A stretch of 30,728 nucleotides of DNA from a virus. Taxonomy: Duplodnaviria > Heunggongvirae > Uroviricota > Caudoviricetes. Positions 310 through 30,728 of the stretch are shown in pieces. Every line of letters begins with the position of its first letter. Position 1 is the stretch's first letter. Both the position numbers and the translations under genes were made by a program. Below the pieces are notes generated by a model. It was given only the letters and a program-made list of their open reading frames with translations, was not told the DNA's origin and did no database searches. Location: IMG/VR virus record IMGVR_UViG_2695420871_000006; one strand, written 5' to 3'.

Positions 310-1047
310 TCATTCACTCTCTTTCAAACCAGTTTTAACTGTTTGTGGTTTTGGGTAAGGCTGGACTTTGAATAGCTTTGTGTTAAGGCGTTTTCTGGCT
401 CTCTTGTCCAGAAACCGGATGTAACGAAACTGACGGAATTTATGAACACTGGCTCTGTCGATATTAGCCCGCAGATGTTCACCTCGCTGTCCTCCTCGTT
501 TGATTGCATTCTTGCAAATCTCGTGATACCACTCGCCATCAAGTTCATAGAATGTTGTTTCATGACTGCCTACATAATCAAAATTGCTTGCCTGGTACAC
601 GACACCAAGACAGCCACAACGCTCATCTGCAAACGACTGAACCCACTGCACCTGCGGATAAAGTTGTCTGATTAGTTTGAGCGCGTAACTGATTGCCCTT
701 GATTCAGAGTTTCTCGGCATACAGTCATGCAGCCATAACCGGTTAAGCTCCATATATTCGCGGTTCTGCGTGCCAGTTACGACGCGTGCACCATTGTTTG
801 GATTAAGGGCATAACCCCATTGCATTACGCCAACCAGCTCCCGTTCTGAAAATATGCCCAGATGAAGGTAGGAATTATTTACGAAACGATGGCTGTAATG
901 TTTATTGACGACGACCAGCCGGGCCAGCCAGCAACTTATTGTCTCAACCCGTAACTCACGGGAGCCATAACCGACGATATTGTCGTTATAGTGAATAAGT
1001 TCAGGCGTGCTGATGATACGGGATGTAACTTGCTTTCTGTTCCCCAC
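310..1047 (-). CDS. mom: Mom-like DNA (adenine) modification protein, anti-restriction. Start uncertain: GTG at 1045-1047 is proposed, but the frame is open up to 1242.
   Basis: Large ORF overlapping and immediately downstream of com, and the last gene before the phage end as in Mu. The proposed GTG lies in the 3' arm of a hairpin with AAGGAAA in the loop. Confidence 0.7.
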
Positions 1048-1201
1048 GACAGGATTTCCTTGTGTATGTGGGGTGCTCTGTGGCGCTCTGAGATGTGATT
1101 TGATTGAGGGTTTTACAGCGCGGACATTTAACTTCCAGATAACTGAAGCTGGCTCGTGCCAGTAGCTTGTTACAATGTCGGCACCGTATGTTTCGATACA
1201 T
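1001..1201 (-). CDS. com: Com, zinc-finger translational activator of mom (about 66 aa from ATG 1199-1201; the track ORF extends to a TTG at 1246)
   Basis: Protein [34 protein letters not shown]... has a CxxC...CPRC zinc finger resembling Mu Com as recalled from memory. AGGAGG (revcomp of 1212-1217) lies 10 nt upstream of the ATG. Confidence 0.8.
1042..1073 (-). promoter_or_regulatory. mRNA hairpin (CCCCAC, 20-nt loop, GUGGGG) sequestering the putative mom GUG start and SD; candidate Com-responsive translational switch
   Basis: Perfect 6-bp GC stem read from the sequence. Matches the established Com mechanism of unmasking the mom translation initiation region. Confidence 0.5.
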
Positions 1202-1248
1202 GGCCGCATAACCTCCTGCTTTGTTGTTGATATCTTTATCACTCAATC

Positions 1249-2535: not shown

Positions 2536-4590
2536 TTACGCGTTATTCACTTCCACCACGATACTGTCAATCAGTACCGGGTAAGTCGCATTTTTAGTGA
2601 TATCGGTCACGCGCAACTTGTCTGCCGTAAACGTGCCGACCGGAGACTGCGACAGCATGAATGGTGTCCCGTCCTTACCATCAATGACCGGCGTCACCTC
2701 AATACTGTTGTTACCGGCAAAACGGAAGCCCAGCGTATGCCATTCGTTATTAAATGCACCGAATGACCCCAGTTTCGTGTTTTGCGCCGTATTGCCCTTG
2801 TGGTACATCACGTTAAGGTCTGTGGCATCGCTCTGTACATAGAATGACGCCAGCAAGTTATGACCTGAATTACCTTCCAGCATGACACCCTGAGGCAGTG
2901 AAGAAACCGGCCAGTATAGCGCCAGTGCATACCGATTAGCCGTAAGCGCACCATCAAGTTTAAAACGACAACTGACAAGACCGCCTTTACCCAGGAGGTC
3001 TGCGCCATTACCAGCATCATGCTCAAGGTACCAGGAGGCTCTTCCTGTTTCCTTGGTCAGTTTCATTGCCTTACCCCCGCTGGCTCCGGCATCATCCACG
3101 ATTTGAGCCTTGCCACCTCCGGCAGCCCAACCCTGTGGTGTCAACCGTCCTTCAGACTCAGATGCCCGGTAAGCAAATAGCGTACTCATCGTCGTGGTGT
3201 CTGCGGGTGGCGTGGACGGTTTTGATGGTGTATCAGGTGACGGCTTCTCATCCGGTGGTGTCACGGTCTGCCCGCGCATCAATTCAGCCGTGCGCCCTGC
3301 ATGGAGCATAATAGCTGAGGCCAGACGGTCTGAAATGACGCCCCTGCGTGCCCATGAGCTGAAATGGCTGTCACGCTGTGTCGAAACAAAACTGCCCTGG
3401 GTTCGGGATGCTGCACCGTAATACCCGACAGCCACAATATCCGGGTCTTCCGCCGGAGCATTCGTTGGCGTGCTCTGTCCATTCTCATCCGTCAGGAACG
3501 GTACAAAGAAAATTTTCTGTGCTTCCTTGCCTTTGTAGCCACCGTATACTGCCTCATATTTATCGGTGCCAGCGTTTTTCCAGTAATACGTGGTATCACC
3601 GCAAATCCACGGCACCGTGGTGGCATTTCCACTCACGCACTGCGCAGCAAGCGGAGCCAGGTCAGTTCTGAACTGCTGAACCATGGCCGTGAATAAACTA
3701 TTATGCTGCTGGCTTCCTGAGGCAAGGTCTGCCTCTCCCTGCATCCAGACCACAGCCAGAAGTTTGTTTTTCGGGTTTTTCGCCAGCGCGACTTTGGTGC
3801 GGCTTACCAGGTCCTGATACAGAGGTTTACCGGCCCCCCAGCGTGAAGAATCAGCGGAAGCACCGCTGGCCTCACTGAATGAGCCGTCGGCTCCAGTGGT
3901 GAATGCTGACCCGCCACGACAACAGGGCACCAGAAGTATCCCCGCATTCTGTGGGATATAGGGAAGCAGTTTTTTGGCAATATGCAACCCCTGACTGACA
4001 GTCCCGTACTGGCCTTTTGCCAGATCAGCTTTCGGGTGGTTTATCCCGCTCATATCCTGAACATCATGCAGGCAGTGGTCTGCCGGAATGATGTCGTTGT
4101 ATGTACACGACGTACCGTTGGGCGTTACCGTACTGCGGCGTGCCAGTTGCTTAATGCGTGGGTCCGGGCGGTCAAACGAATCCGGTAACGGCAGCCCCTC
4201 GCCGTAGGCCATGCCATTTGACTGACCCGCGAGAATGACAACAAAGTAATATTCCGGCTCTGAACTGCTGCCATTCGTGCTACCGGAAGGCCCGGCGTTA
4301 TCCGGTGCATTCCAGTCGGAGGGCGTGAGCGTTCCGGCCACGTCAGATGTGATTGGAATGATGCCAGTCACGCCTGAACTGGTGATTTCTGCACTGGGAT
4401 TACCGGATACCGGCATTACCCATAATGGCTCTTTCGTGCTGAAGCGGATCACGCAGTCTGCGAAGGTGATCCCCCCTTTATTACCCGAAGGGCGGAAAGG
4501 GCTTTCAATAAATGCCACCGTGCCACCGGCAACCTTGACTGAAAACTCTCCGGGCATGGCGGAGAGCATTTTCCACTTGGAGTCTGACAT
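2536..4590 (-). CDS. Prophage cargo carbohydrate O-acetylesterase (SGNH/SASA family, NanS-p-like sialate O-acetylesterase) with N-terminal domain, Pro-rich linker and C-terminal lectin-like domain; 684 aa
   Basis: Motifs LAGQSNGMAYG, CCRGGSAF and VVWMQGEADL match the GQSN / WxQGE(S/A)D signatures of the sialate O-acetylesterase family. Linker PPDEKPSPDTPSKPSTPP. Sits downstream of tail fibre genes as nanS-p genes do in EHEC prophages. Confidence 0.65.
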   Translation of the reverse strand: MSDSKWKMLSAMPGEFSVKVAGGTVAFIESPFRPSGNKGGITFADCVIRFSTKEPLWVMPVSGNPSAEITSSGVTGIIPITSDVAGTLTPSDWNAPDNAGPSGSTNGSSSEPEYYFVVILAGQSNGMAYGEGLPLPDSFDRPDPRIKQLARRSTVTPNGTSCTYNDIIPADHCLHDVQDMSGINHPKADLAKGQYGTVSQGLHIAKKLLPYIPQNAGILLVPCCRGGSAFTTGADGSFSEASGASADSSRWGAGKPLYQDLVSRTKVALAKNPKNKLLAVVWMQGEADLASGSQQHNSLFTAMVQQFRTDLAPLAAQCVSGNATTVPWICGDTTYYWKNAGTDKYEAVYGGYKGKEAQKIFFVPFLTDENGQSTPTNAPAEDPDIVAVGYYGAASRTQGSFVSTQRDSHFSSWARRGVISDRLASAIMLHAGRTAELMRGQTVTPPDEKPSPDTPSKPSTPPADTTTMSTLFAYRASESEGRLTPQGWAAGGGKAQIVDDAGASGGKAMKLTKETGRASWYLEHDAGNGADLLGKGGLVSCRFKLDGALTANRYALALYWPVSSLPQGVMLEGNSGHNLLASFYVQSDATDLNVMYHKGNTAQNTKLGSFGAFNNEWHTLGFRFAGNNSIEVTPVIDGKDGTPFMLSQSPVGTFTADKLRVTDITKNATYPVLIDSIVVEVNNA

Positions 4591-4894
4591 CGTCTTTTCT
4601 GCCTGTTTCTGAATTAAACAGAGTCAGAATAACAACCGCTGATAAATATGTGTTTTGCGGAAATTCAAAAAAAGCATCACGGTACTTTTTGTGACGGAGC
4701 CGGTTAGGCAGGAACATAACGACAAAGGATGGACAGGCCAATACGATAACCGCATATTACCGGCTTATAATTGATTTAACGATTCATGACGCTGCGGTCA
4801 GCATCTGAAAATATGCGTTATTTCAGAAACCCCTTGCCTGTATATGGCGATATTATTATTCCTGTTTTTATCATTGATTTACATGGTGATGTTT

Positions 4895-5416
4895 ATGCAA
4901 CTGATTAATGTTAAACGATATTACCCGGAACAAAAACCCTTTGGTAATGATGTACAGTATTTTCAAAGTGAAGATGGTAAGGATTTCTATGAGTCCCTGC
5001 CATTATTCACCAAAAAATATAAACTTTGCATAACCCCTGACAGCGGTGTTATCTGCTCAATATCACAGGATGCTTCGGCGCTGTATCCTGCGGGTTTTTC
5101 CGTTGTTGAGACAGACGAATTACCTGAAGGTACTGATATTTCAGGTAACTGGAAGTTTGATAATGGTGTCATCTCACAACTCCCGGTTAACTATACCAAA
5201 AAAGCGGAAGCACTGCGCCAGTCATATCTTAATCAGGCATATGAAAAGATTAATGACTGGAGAACTGAGTTACAGCTGGGCACGATTAGTGATGAAAACA
5301 GAGCTGCGCTTACACGATGGATGAAATACATCAGTCAGGTGAAAAAAATGGAACTACCAGCGATTAAAAACAAAGCTGAATTTGACGCCATTAAATGGCC
5401 GGAGAAGCCTGAATAA
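4895..5416 (+). CDS. Tail fibre assembly chaperone (Tfa/U-like), opposite strand to the fibre gene; start at ATG 4895 proposed (track ORF starts at 4844)
   Basis: C-terminus ...TRWMKYISQVKKMELPAIKNKAEFDAIKWPEKPE is typical of Tfa proteins. The gene is AT-rich by eye. Confidence 0.75.
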   Translation: MQLINVKRYYPEQKPFGNDVQYFQSEDGKDFYESLPLFTKKYKLCITPDSGVICSISQDASALYPAGFSVVETDELPEGTDISGNWKFDNGVISQLPVNYTKKAEALRQSYLNQAYEKINDWRTELQLGTISDENRAALTRWMKYISQVKKMELPAIKNKAEFDAIKWPEKPE

Positions 5417-27993: not shown

Positions 27994-28416
27994 TCAGAAA
28001 AGCCGTGGCTGCGTGCGTTCCTGATGCAGGCGACGCTGGTTGCGGATAACGGAGTAAATCTGCGTCTCTGACATCTGGTAGTGGCGGCGCAGGGTTTCAA
28101 TTTTTTCGCCCTGGCTCCAGCGGGAAAAAATTTCATTATTGCGCAGTTCGGTGAAAAGGGATTCACCGACCGGGAGATAATAACCACGCCCGCCCATGTA
28201 CCCGGCCTGTGCGGCTGCAACCTTACGGGCAAGCATTCCCGCCTGAGCAGGTTCAATCCCCTGACGGTGCAGTTCAGCACTGATCACATCAACCAGGTCC
28301 CGCAGCGTGCCGGGCCAGTTCTTTTTCAGCTCATCATCAGGAATATCATCCAGACGGTCAATCAGCGCGTGCAGCTGTTCGCTGTCACCAAACATGCTCA
28401 TCTGTGTTTCAGCCAT
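27994..28416 (-). CDS. Mor/C-family transcriptional activator of middle/late genes (140 aa)
   Basis: C-terminal ...GGRGYYLPVGESLFTELRNNEIFSRW...ETQIYSVIR is typical of the Mor/C family. GGAGG SD. Located between gemA and lys. Confidence 0.8.
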   Translation of the reverse strand: MAETQMSMFGDSEQLHALIDRLDDIPDDELKKNWPGTLRDLVDVISAELHRQGIEPAQAGMLARKVAAAQAGYMGGRGYYLPVGESLFTELRNNEIFSRWSQGEKIETLRRHYQMSETQIYSVIRNQRRLHQERTQPRLF

Positions 28417-28450
28417 ACCCGCCTCCGGTCATCATTACACAGGGCAAGTT

Positions 28451-28480
28451 TAAAATAAAAATCCCGCGCTGTGGCGGGAT
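28451..28480 (-). terminator. Intrinsic terminator 7 bp downstream of gemA: ATCCCGC (6-nt loop) GCGGGAT followed by UUUUAUUUUA on the minus strand
   Basis: 7-bp perfect stem with a U-run read on the minus strand. Confidence 0.65.
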
Positions 28481-28486
28481 TTGGGG

Positions 28487-28999
28487 TTAAAAGGGGGAGG
28501 ATTCTTCATACAGCCTGCAAACGCGCTCATAACTCATCACTGTACGCGCTGACATCCCCAGCACATCCAGCATCTTGCGGCGGTGCCAGCGTTTGAGACG
28601 CTCCAGCACATCAGAGGCCAGCGCGGGGTGTTGTTCCAGCCACTGCCAGTTAGCCACACCTTCGCCGCCGTTCTGAGCGGCCGTCTGCGATTTCACCCAG
28701 CGGTTAAGGGCTGTTTCCCCGCCATCAGAGATAAAGCCCTGCCGGTGCATCACCTTCCAGATGGCGCGAATTTTGGCGGTCACCGTACCCGGTTTTAAGG
28801 CCCGGTTAACCGGCTTCTGACGCACTTTAAAACCGCGTTTTTTGAAAACATCCAGCACGCGGGATAACTCATCCGGTGACATATCCCGGCAACTGGGTTT
28901 GCCGGTGGCTGCCAGTAGTACGGATGTGTAGGTCTCATGGTCAAGCTGTAGATCGCATTTTGCGACATGTATTAAGGTAATCAGGGAAGCGCGATTCAT
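28487..28999 (-). CDS. gemA: GemA-like early regulatory protein (Mu gp16-like)
   Basis: 170 aa; position immediately upstream of the Mor/C gene; Trp-rich C-terminal half. Confidence 0.7.
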   Translation of the reverse strand: MNRASLITLIHVAKCDLQLDHETYTSVLLAATGKPSCRDMSPDELSRVLDVFKKRGFKVRQKPVNRALKPGTVTAKIRAIWKVMHRQGFISDGGETALNRWVKSQTAAQNGGEGVANWQWLEQHPALASDVLERLKRWHRRKMLDVLGMSARTVMSYERVCRLYEESSPF

Positions 29000-29063
29000 T
29001 ATCGTGTCTCCGTAACAACAGGCGGCATGGCAACGCCGCCCGGATAAAACTAAAGGTATCGAT

Positions 29064-29474
29064 ATGAAAATAGATTACGATGAAGTATTAAGTATTCTCA
29101 CAACTTTTCAGGATGCTGAAACACCTTTCCTTACACTACAGGATCTGGGCATGGCTGAGGCAGAAGGAGAGGAAAAGGATAAAAAAGTTTTTCATCTTAT
29201 GCTTCTCGCTGATAATGGCTCAATTGTTAATGGTGATATGCGGTCAGAAACACCAAAATATATTGGTTTCTTTTTTCATTCTCTGGGCGTTGGTTTCAGA
29301 AACACGCCCATTATGCTTACTCAGCAGGGGCATGATTTAGCTAACGCCCTGAGAAAAAAACCAATCCTTGAAAGAATCAAAAAGGAGTTTACAGACGCGC
29401 CATTTGATCTAATCAAAGAAGTTACCAAATCAATGTTAACCAGGTTCGTCAAAGAACGTATTGGGATTGACTAA
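29064..29474 (+). CDS. Hypothetical protein, 136 aa, AT-rich opposite-strand moron in the early region
   Basis: ATG with AAAGG 7 nt upstream. Clearly AT-rich by eye. Own terminator 24 bp downstream. No recognised motif. Confidence 0.55.
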   Translation: MKIDYDEVLSILTTFQDAETPFLTLQDLGMAEAEGEEKDKKVFHLMLLADNGSIVNGDMRSETPKYIGFFFHSLGVGFRNTPIMLTQQGHDLANALRKKPILERIKKEFTDAPFDLIKEVTKSMLTRFVKERIGID

Positions 29475-29744
29475 ACAACTTAATTCAGCCAGTAATCGCA
29501 GGGCGGCGACAGCCGCCTGCTTGTCACTTCTTTTAGCTATTTCCGCAAGGGTATGCACAATCCATAACGGACTTAACGCTACGGCTGAATCCAGAATCAT
29601 GTCATCCATAATAATTTCTGGCATATCCCGCTTGTCACATTCTTTATCCATAAAAGAAACGAATTTTTCAGCATCTTCCGGTTTCATCCCTCCGGCGATA
29701 AGGATTTTGCGATATTCATAAGACGATCTTAATTCAATACTCAT
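29436..29744 (-). CDS. Hypothetical early-region protein, 102 aa
   Basis: ATG 29742-29744 with AGGTG SD; 15 nt after the upstream gene's stop; 3' end overlaps the moron by 39 nt. Confidence 0.45.
   Translation of the reverse strand: MSIELRSSYEYRKILIAGGMKPEDAEKFVSFMDKECDKRDMPEIIMDDMILDSAVALSPLWIVHTLAEIAKRSDKQAAVAALRLLAELSCLVNPNTFFDEPG
29498..29534 (+). terminator. Hairpin GCAGGGCGGC (GACA loop) GCCGCCTGC followed by TTGTCACTTCTTTT; candidate terminator for the plus-strand moron
   Basis: 10-bp stem with one bulge and a U-rich tail; lies inside the coding region of the opposite-strand ORF 29436-29744. Confidence 0.45.
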
Positions 29745-29759
29745 TATTCACCTGCCTGC

Positions 29760-30110
29760 TTAATCTGTTTCCAGTGCTTTGCTACGAGCTATAGCCTCAC
29801 ATTCAAAAAATACCGACTCCGGCACGCGCCCTTTTAATTCACGAACAAGGAAGTCATTAACGCGTTCATGACGTCTTATATTTCTTTCCTTTTCCTCCTG
29901 GCGCAATACAGCAAGGCGGTATTCAACAGCCCGGCGTTGTTTCTGAAAGACAGCCAGTGCTTTTCTGGCAGCATTACGCCATGCATCATCGCCACATGGT
30001 GCGTATTCAAGCTGAAATTTAATCTCTTCAATAGTTTCTTTGATTTTTGCCAGCAAGCTAAGACAGTCGCTTATTGTCTCCAGCTTTTCATTATCAATAT
30101 AACTTCTCAC
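29760..30110 (-). CDS. Hypothetical early-region protein (116 aa from GTG 30108-30110; track ORF starts at GTG 30152)
   Basis: No internal Met. The GTG at 30108-30110 has GGAGG 7 nt upstream and forms a GTGA overlap with the upstream stop. Confidence 0.5.
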   Translation of the reverse strand: MRSYIDNEKLETISDCLSLLAKIKETIEEIKFQLEYAPCGDDAWRNAARKALAVFQKQRRAVEYRLAVLRQEEKERNIRRHERVNDFLVRELKGRVPESVFFECEAIARSKALETD

Positions 30111-30436
30111 GCATTCACCTCCCGTAATTCCGGTAAAGCCGAAATATGACACCAGTGCGTCACCTGTCCGTCTTCATCTTCAAGGCAGGCTCCGGTTTCT
30201 TCATCAACAAAAAAGCCTTCATACCCCATATGGCCGATGCGCAGCTCCTGACGGTGACCATACTGAACAATCAGCACGACAGCCTCCATATCAGGTGGGA
30301 AAGCATCATTCAGTGAATGCCAGGGATAACCGCGTAAATCCCCGAAATAAACACCGGTCAGCGTTCCGCCACAGAGCGGCATTCCGGCGGCACACACAAG
30401 AGGTTCATCTGATTCAACAAATAAGGTCGTTATCAT
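30107..30436 (-). CDS. Hypothetical early-region protein, 109 aa
   Basis: ATG 30434-30436 in an ATGA overlap with the upstream gene; GGGAG SD. Confidence 0.55.
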   Translation of the reverse strand: MITTLFVESDEPLVCAAGMPLCGGTLTGVYFGDLRGYPWHSLNDAFPPDMEAVVLIVQYGHRQELRIGHMGYEGFFVDEETGACLEDEDGQVTHWCHISALPELREVNA

Positions 30437-30728
30437 GGCGTTAACTCCCGTAATACAGCGTCCTCGGCAGTCCGGCGACGGTAATAAACTGCGTGAGCAG
30501 AATGTTCAGATATTCCAAACTTTTCGCCAATTTCCCGGAATGACAGACGGCGTGGGTAATCGGAATCACGCAGCGCACGTATAAGACGTACATCATCATC
30601 AGATATGCGCGTGCCGGGGCGTAACTCTCCGCACTTTGGGTGATGCTGCCAACTTACTGATTTAGTGTATGATGGTGTTTTTGAGGTGCTCCAGTGGCTT
30701 CTGTTTCTATCAGCTGTCCCTCCTGTTC
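30433..30728 (-). CDS. 3' part of an early gene running off the window; C-terminus has a helix-turn-helix-like motif
   Basis: Hand translation of the open minus frame gives ...ISDDDVRLIRALRDSDYPRRLSFREIGEKFGISEHSAHAVYYRRRTAEDAVLRELTP, with stop TGA at 30433-30435. Confidence 0.45.
   Translation of the reverse strand, partial: TGGTADRNRSHWSTSKTPSYTKSVSWQHHPKCGELRPGTRISDDDVRLIRALRDSDYPRRLSFREIGEKFGISEHSAHAVYYRRRTAEDAVLRELTP

Follow-up and report, generated by a model that had tools for sequence, protein, structure and literature searches.

The window analysed here, a stretch of 30,728 nucleotides filed as IMG/VR virus record IMGVR_UViG_2695420871_000006, corresponds to a Mu-like prophage in minus-strand orientation, and this work concerns a single open reading frame (ORF) of the opposite polarity that lies between gemA and the small early genes (Table 1). 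No other plus-strand gene is found in the portion of the early region covered by the window, and the ORF has its own Shine-Dalgarno-like sequence, both as stated in a preliminary description made from the sequence; purine-rich runs at an equal distance from the start are found in the Salmonella, E. coli and Yersinia homologues. The ORF diverges from gemA, whose start is 64 bp away, and converges upon a gene of family phrog_1988, the first of the small early genes of PHROG families 1988, 6158 and 6925 to its right. It is a prophage cargo gene in a newly delimited hot spot of the Mu family and a member of an already annotated domain-of-unknown-function (DUF) family.

An exchangeable slot beside gemA

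The slot occupied by the ORF is polymorphic and prone to recombination, and its limits follow from comparison with related loci. Blastn homology to the commonest version of the slot, the O157:H7-type variant B (loci L001, L003, L004, L006 and L007), breaks off at 28972 and resumes at 29500, and the module between these points takes in the start of gemA (nine codons), the spacer and the whole ORF and extends 25 bp past the ORF, with the last 21 codons of the phrog_1988 gene also lying inside. In place of this module variant B holds two co-directional genes for proteins of 98 and 65 residues. The break points against variant C (L005, E. coli PO06021) are 29018 and 30121, and this variant carries a different opposite-strand ORF of 79 codons without a Pfam match (L005, 2171-2410, plus strand), followed by a minus-strand gene for a 95-residue protein. 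The 79-codon ORF was considered as a cryptic relative of the window ORF and rejected at an hhalign probability of 2%. It also occurs in IMG/VR loci L074, L079, L081-83, L093, L095 and L096, as a further uncharacterised cargo of the slot.

A comparison of the locus across Mu-like prophages, which the preliminary description had proposed, shows both presence and absence of the ORF. Among the IMG/VR loci with GemA at least 85% identical, eight are of type A, with the window-type ORF, 18 of type B and eight of type C, while a ninth A locus, L070, is cut by the end of its contig; the three types are not separated by GemA identity. At least 80% of the region 28400-30640 is present in only six of 5426 complete E. 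coli genomes, and related prophages occur in 232. One A-type locus, L075, has lost the ORF by a deletion from about 29049 to 29418 and retains the hairpin on the gemA side as well as the last ~57 nucleotides, which encode the tail of the phrog_1988 protein.

Beyond these close relatives, homologues of 45-54% identity are found in the same slot and orientation in Mu-like prophages of Salmonella, other E. coli and Edwardsiella and in further IMG/VR phages. In all, 23 same-slot loci in five allele groups place the gene immediately ahead of gemA in divergent orientation. The GemA proteins of these loci share 44-68% identity with that of the window, and Kil, Gam and GemA homologues are present in related loci. 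The convergent overlap with the phrog_1988 gene is again 39 bp in the Salmonella loci and 30 bp in E. coli L019; slot and overlap are conserved at 51% identity. Since homologues so diverged hold the same slot across divergent GemA, the gene is not a one-off recent insertion. The earlier proposal of a horizontally acquired moron therefore stands insofar as the gene is accessory, losable, held in a swappable slot and present or absent among very close relatives, but not in the sense of a single recent arrival.

By definition a moron is a single coding region between genes that are adjacent in related phages, with a differing composition, its own promoter and its own terminator (PMC4378225). The locus resembles this in that gemA and the phrog_1988 gene flank differing contents in variants A, B and C and that the ORF is deleted in L075; the slot of variant B is, however, not empty, and for the ORF a consensus scan called neither a promoter nor a terminator. 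The composition agrees in part. At 38.4% GC and 33.6% GC at third codon positions (GC3) the ORF is within the lowest 1.5% of 411-bp windows by GC and contrasts, as first described, with gemA, mor and the lysozyme gene (GC 55-56%, with 55% for gemA on its left; GC3 60-65%), but the two minus-strand genes to its right have GC contents of 41.7% and 43.0% and GC3 values of 38.8% and 34.2%. Because these backbone genes are also AT-rich, low GC marks a tract of three genes and not the ORF alone.

A second variable slot, with 0.7-1.4 kb of extra DNA in several relatives, lies between gemA and mor. In L011 it contains an opposite-strand ORF of 134 codons without a Pfam match (4982-5386, plus strand), and in Kluyvera phages it is occupied by a 32%-identical DUF2513 homologue.

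A divergent DUF2513 branch and its distribution

The preliminary description found no motif that it could place in the product of the ORF; profile comparison assigns the protein to phrog_585 (E 1.1e-17) and aligns its residues 2-111 with positions 1-96 of the 100 in the Pfam model DUF2513 (PF10711; 23.3 bits, E 8.5e-5). As this score is below the Pfam gathering threshold of 29.6 bits, the protein represents a divergent DUF2513 branch and not a curated member. DUF2513 is matched at E ≤ 1e-3 by 26 of the 45 aligned homologues, several hits carry a precomputed PF10711 assignment, and one relative, P0107, matches both DUF2513 (48.4 bits) and YjcQ. A word-seeded search recovered four relatives and a profile search 51, while an exhaustive single-sequence search gave 115 cluster representatives at E ≤ 1e-3, nearly all of 130-150 residues and aligned end to end. 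Longer homologues were considered as fusion proteins and set aside: P0131 matches falsely owing to low complexity, and the rest offered no information. Searches of NCBIfam and of PDB sequences gave no useful match.

Conservation within the branch is pronounced. The homologues share the start MKIDYDE, the invariant residues F15, G68, L85, T86, G89 and A93 and the near-invariant motifs RLTxxGHDFA and A-P-F, and length, start and motifs are retained down to 25-30% identity. The exact protein was counted on 385 contigs from E. coli, Shigella and other Enterobacteriaceae, and at least 1000 contigs carry a near-identical one. AlphaFold2 on the 45-sequence alignment produced a model with a mean predicted local distance difference test score (pLDDT) of 93.3 and a predicted template modelling score (pTM) of 0.85. 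The 51 homologues with their conserved N-terminus, the invariant residues and this confident model together show that the ORF is a genuine gene.

The predicted structure shows a winged helix-turn-helix (wHTH) fold in which the wing is long and three helices follow at the C-terminus. The fold search that had been suggested from the outset was run with Foldseek against the PDB, and its top matches are almost all MarR-type regulators, at E values of only ~1e-2, template modelling (TM) scores of ~0.4 and identities of 13-20%; a PDB profile search gave a marginal match to a MarR protein over the wing and the C-terminal helices, and a BFVD fold search returned unnamed viral proteins only. In size, stand-alone architecture and full-length alignment the protein resembles DUF2513 (PF10711) and YjcQ (PF09639), uncharacterised small winged-helix proteins of ~130-150 residues from prophages and islands, and differs from the DUF2513 model by ~40 extra C-terminal residues that form two or three helices and include the conserved A-P-F. 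With the MarR, PadR and TubR type it shares a similar size, N- and C-terminal helices that resemble those of MarR and an "LT..G" wing-to-helix motif that aligns with the MarR protein. Unlike these proteins it is acidic, both overall and in the putative recognition helix, and the expected helix 2 is replaced by a variable acidic loop with insertions and deletions. The isoelectric point is 5.41 in the window protein (family median 5.69, range 4.8-7.0) and the putative recognition helix carries a net charge of -1 (family mean -2.4). The acidity of the family speaks against a classical repressor.

Outside Mu-like prophages the homologues occupy a wide range of mobile elements, and this distribution shows a gene that is evidently portable. 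In Yersinia and other lambdoid prophages a lone opposite-strand homologue lies between tail genes K and I, and in P2/HP1-like phages of IMG/VR a homologue follows the tail-fibre genes at the end of the module. In Vibrio and Microbulbifer homologues are found in arrays of short co-directional ORFs separated by ~120-bp attC-like repeats with TAACAA...GTTAG/T ends, which identify them as integron cassettes; L024, L034 and L041 are such loci of the DUF2513 branch, and in L024 (Vibrio qingdaonensis) two diverged copies are present in one array, at 4514-4936 and at ~6.7-7.2 kb. In Thiopseudomonas the homologue is part of a type I restriction island with the order hsdR, YgjP, the gene itself, AAA_13 and DUF4062. 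In a Vibrio island it adjoins a PARIS-like gene, an AAA_15/21 ATPase that matches AriA, with a PAAR-DUF3289 toxin nearby, and in Janthinobacterium (L015/L069) it ends an array of VgrG, DUF4123, Tox-REase-5 and a 271-residue protein, bordering a prophage.

The last two settings would fit an orphan immunity protein or antitoxin-like inhibitor that binds a secreted or injected nuclease-type toxin, of a type VI secretion system or of the polymorphic kind, and thereby protects the lysogen. The small acidic protein, the VgrG array that it terminates in Janthinobacterium, the vicinity of the PAAR-DUF3289 toxin in Vibrio and the two copies in a single cassette array are all consistent with such a role. 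Toxin neighbours are, however, confined to two locus types, and Vibrio L013 lacks the toxin and keeps the homologue. Nor is the homologue placed immediately downstream of a cognate toxin, as polymorphic-toxin immunity genes are: in L015 the 271-residue protein gene separates the two, and in Vibrio the homologue is upstream. The strong conservation of the polar motif RLTxxGHDFA across distant hosts is likewise unlike the usual, fast-evolving interfaces of immunity proteins, and a toxin is absent from the Mu-like and lambdoid contexts, including the window. Taken together this makes a toxin-directed immunity function improbable.

An obligate partner gene was also considered and rejected, since clustering the neighbours of 32 non-Mu loci yielded no recurrent neighbour family. 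Among 91 neighbours of the non-Mu homologues several match PADLOC families, namely AriA, a type I restriction endonuclease, mad3, KwaA, PD-T4-4_A, NsnB and PDC candidates, and some of the settings are hot-spot types known for defence genes; this company is no more than suggestive of a defence role.

Hairpins, flanking genes and the prophage setting

Two GC-rich hairpins border the ORF. The hairpin beyond its stop codon had been described as a terminator with a U-tail embedded in the coding sequence of the opposite gene, and the hairpin indeed exists at this place. Its tail reads UUGUCACUUCUUUU, which is no canonical U-tract, the terminator scan made no call at 29498-29520, and the fold of 29475-29540 on the plus strand (-17.7 kcal/mol, z -1.7) was equalled by 12 of 200 shuffled sequences. 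The AAVAAL motif, and hence the GCNGC...GCNGC palindrome, is found in every phrog_1988 homologue examined, including 20 loci (16 + 4) without a plus-strand ORF, and the counterpart of the stem is imperfect in four of 12 sequence types. Because the codons for AAVAAL form the hairpin, also where the ORF is lacking, a terminator brought in by the ORF and specific to the cassette was rejected; the hairpin is evidently a by-product of the way phrog_1988 is encoded, whether or not it also terminates transcription. The motif of the phrog_1988 protein is conserved in the form D-K-x-A-A-V-A-A-L and its codons form a GC hairpin on both strands, the pairing being kept in one variant by a double synonymous change (GCG/GCC to GCA/GCT) and broken in others.

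The second hairpin, between the ORF and gemA, is present as first reported, but the better fold is that of the gemA strand (stem of 10 bp, -20.4 kcal/mol, z -2.0); the plus strand forms only 6 bp and an 8-nucleotide loop (z -1.1). In the window allele the U-tract on the minus strand is degenerate, UGUUGUUAC, while positional counterparts in the Salmonella loci and in variant C, with its unrelated ORF, have minus-strand tails of TCTTTTTTT or CATTTTTTA followed directly by the gemA ribosome-binding site. Because of these tails and their position, the hairpin is best understood as a stem-loop of the gemA strand that resembles a terminator or attenuator. Such a structure, whose U-tract is strong in variant C and in the Salmonella loci, would end or dampen early transcription ahead of gemA-mor. 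Variant B, in which gemA and the gene upstream overlap, lacks it, as do L019-type loci with their 30-bp spacer. The two hairpins were also considered as repeats that bound the cassette, their arms being mutually complementary, but each is explained separately. An Rfam scan of 28400-30728 gave only a chance microRNA match.

Table 1 Features of the gemA slot and its surroundings. Positions are those of the window unless a locus is named.
Feature	Position	Strand	Basis or remark
Lysozyme gene	27422-27922		Gene near the ORF
Mor gene	27994-28416		Pfam Mor, E 6.7e-31
gemA (GemA/gp16 family), left flank of the slot	28487-28999	-	Pfam GemA, E 2.8e-28; phrog_286
Exchangeable module	28973-29499		No DNA homology to variant B
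GC-rich hairpin between ORF and gemA, directly upstream of the gemA Shine-Dalgarno sequence	29019-29042	-	Fold and positional counterparts
Counterparts of the gemA-side hairpin	L008 5951-5975; L005 2123-2145; L042; L049
Shine-Dalgarno-like AAGG	29053-29056	+	7 nt before the ATG; sequence reading
Gene for the 136-residue acidic winged-helix protein (DUF2513-like, phrog_585)	29064-29474	+	ATG start; ORF list
Codons of M84 and L92	29313-29315; 29337-29339
A7 homopolymer in the ORF	29354-29360	+	Recurrent frameshift site
Convergent overlap of the 3' ends of the ORF and the phrog_1988 gene	29436-29474		39 bp; ORF list
phrog_1988 early gene (102 residues), right flank of the slot	29436-29744	-	phrog_1988, E 8e-38
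Hairpin inside the phrog_1988 coding sequence	29498-29520	+	24 nt past the ORF stop; encodes Q-A-A-V-A-A-L on the minus strand
Loci with extra DNA in the second slot, between gemA and mor	L074, L085, L100, L011, L030/L032/L066

The final 90 bases of the window (30639-30728) are IS1 sequence, 100% identical to IS1 copies in P1, SfIV and others, and the element interrupts the early operon ~1.2 kb upstream of the gemA-mor end. The insertion hits a SANT/Myb-like early gene, of which the 3' part remains (30433-30638, minus strand), and the prophage may be defective as a result. E. coli TOE17 harbours a near-identical prophage without IS1, in which the SANT/Myb-like gene is intact and the product of the ORF is WP_000687317.1, named "DUF2513 domain-containing protein" in RefSeq.

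In the left part of the window a Mom-family gene (313-1242, minus strand) is found together with a gene for a 684-residue protein with SASA esterase and DUF6645 domains (2539-4590, minus strand), probably a tail fibre or spike, and a tail-fibre-assembly ORF on the plus strand (4844-5416). The genes of this part sit in AT-rich patches (GC 0.34-0.41 at 1200-1600 and 4600-5200), and a recombinase annotated nearby in relatives suggests an invertible tail-fibre segment.

Possible function of the winged-helix protein

We propose that the product of the gene is a portable, stand-alone accessory protein, namely a small winged helix of acidic character from the divergent DUF2513 branch. The gene fills an exchangeable slot for cargo, with gemA on one side and the semi-essential early genes on the other, and its direction is opposite to that of the early operon. 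In the lytic cycle the ORF would be crossed by early transcription in antisense, while in the lysogen, where the early promoter is repressed and thus silent, the gene could be expressed. The protein would then act autonomously and without enzymatic activity, by binding a protein or a nucleic-acid structure of a competing element or of the host. This mode of action appears the most likely because the relatives are single-gene cargo without a fixed partner and the helix that would read DNA is acidic, and no enzymatic domain or partner is present. The outcome would be a function in superinfection exclusion, defence or immunity and not that of a Mu-specific operator-binding repressor; the distribution of the family matches that of conflict genes of these kinds. 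Expression in the lysogen, the mode of binding and the role in conflict are the steps that we infer, and the chances that the whole chain holds seem to us evenly balanced; a specifically anti-phage role is a distinctly more tentative proposition.

The main rival follows from the fold. Winged helices are classic DNA-binding domains, the best structural matches are the DNA binders MarR, PadR and TubR, and the gene is divergent from gemA-mor in the manner of many wHTH regulators and their targets. A MarR/PadR-like transcription factor could bind as a dimer to an inverted repeat, for instance the GC palindrome at 29019-29042 in the 64-bp spacer, and regulate itself and gemA-mor, so that in the lysogen the activation of late genes would be locked a second time, or it could regulate host genes. 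The strong and ancient linkage to the gemA flank and the homologue between mor and gemA in the Kluyvera phages fit this. On the other hand, the family is acidic with a net negative putative recognition helix, a palindrome of the same type precedes gemA in variant C next to the unrelated 79-codon ORF, and L019-type loci lack it altogether. Moreover, no Mu operator exists in the lambdoid and P2-like prophages, the integron cassettes or the restriction islands in which homologues function as the only cargo gene. A regulator of gemA-mor or host genes is thus considered unlikely, if worth keeping in mind, and an autonomous conflict function is preferred.

The losses of the gene bear on whether it has a function at all. 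Besides the deletion in L075, the A7 homopolymer is a recurrent site of frameshifts: a change to A6 in L071 results in a product of 115 residues without the C-terminal helices, and alleles of this length (P0163, P0168 and P0169) occur in two sequence backgrounds on 125, 12 and 9 contigs, more than 140 in all. The deletion and the frameshifts show a gene that is dispensable and has been lost repeatedly; the homopolymer could provide on/off variation driven by slippage, or the alleles could simply be decaying. A passenger that is neutral or in decay, or an ORF arisen by chance opposite the early genes and without a function of its own in the prophage, would agree with these losses, with the departure of the window allele from two nearly invariant residues, with the negative promoter scan and with the interruption of the prophage by IS1. 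It is at odds with the exact full-length protein on so many contigs, the conservation of length, start and motifs down to the most distant relatives, the confident structure prediction and the maintenance of slot and overlap across diverged alleles, and a functionless ORF is accordingly the least probable of the explanations.

Several observations nevertheless weigh against a conflict role of the protein. Independent expression, which the preliminary description had assumed, did not find support, as a consensus scan of the plus strand ahead of 29064 gave no sigma-70-like promoter, although a weak or non-consensus one could escape such a scan, and inspection by eye for -35/-10 pairs in 28940-29063 showed nothing convincing. 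A search of PADLOC-DB 2.0 with the protein returned no family at E ≤ 1, literature searches on DUF2513, PF10711 and YjcQ yielded nothing functional, and the DUF2513 family does not appear in the supplements of Rousset 2022 (PMC9122126) or of the E. coli functional screen of Vassallo 2022 (PMC9519451). The E. coli/Shigella allele has M84 and L92 where R is found in 42 of 45 and F in 41 of 45 relatives, respectively, and may be functionally altered by these substitutions. Neutrality of the gene would explain the frameshifts and the deletion just as well, the wHTH fold and the divergent arrangement are what would be expected of a regulator, and the argument for a role in defence is one of guilt by association with neighbouring genes. 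The two substituted positions fall inside RLTxxGHDFA, the most conserved motif, and R84 is a near-invariant residue of the wing.

The closest concept among known systems is that of the antiviral hot spots carried by P2-like prophages and P4 satellites (Rousset et al. 2022, PMC9122126). The gemA slot resembles them in offering alternative cargos at one site, and one homologue ends the tail-fibre module of P2/HP1-like phages; it is unlike them in lying in the Mu early region beside gemA and in that the protein matches no PADLOC-DB 2.0 defence model. A bolder generalization would be that the DUF2513 branch comprises unrecognised single-gene, non-enzymatic immunity cassettes, in which acidic winged-helix binders, circulating among Mu-like, lambdoid and P2-like prophages, integron arrays and restriction islands, protect the cell that carries them by sequestering some conserved part of an invading phage or other mobile element, and that the gemA slot is the Mu-family counterpart of the P2/P4 hot spots, a view that is speculative and on balance doubtful.

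The semi-essential early (SEE) region of phage Mu contains the genes kil, gam, sot, arm, cim and gemA. The ORF shares with these its position among small, AT-richer, dispensable early genes upstream of gemA-mor and differs from all of them in its strand; it is not known from Mu itself.

For a specialist the locus is an ordinary but clean case that holds no surprise, and the gene is a candidate for phage challenge and not a discovery. Should the conflict role be true, it would provide a function for a widespread DUF family, of which more than 100 clusters at 50% identity are detectable from one sequence, and a very small, non-enzymatic type of effector would join the catalogue of defence systems. 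Mu-like prophages, of which E. coli O157, Shigella and Salmonella commonly carry examples, would also gain a defined hot spot for cargo. Should the protein instead regulate gemA-mor, it would add an extra layer of control to the early-to-late switch of Mu-type phages.

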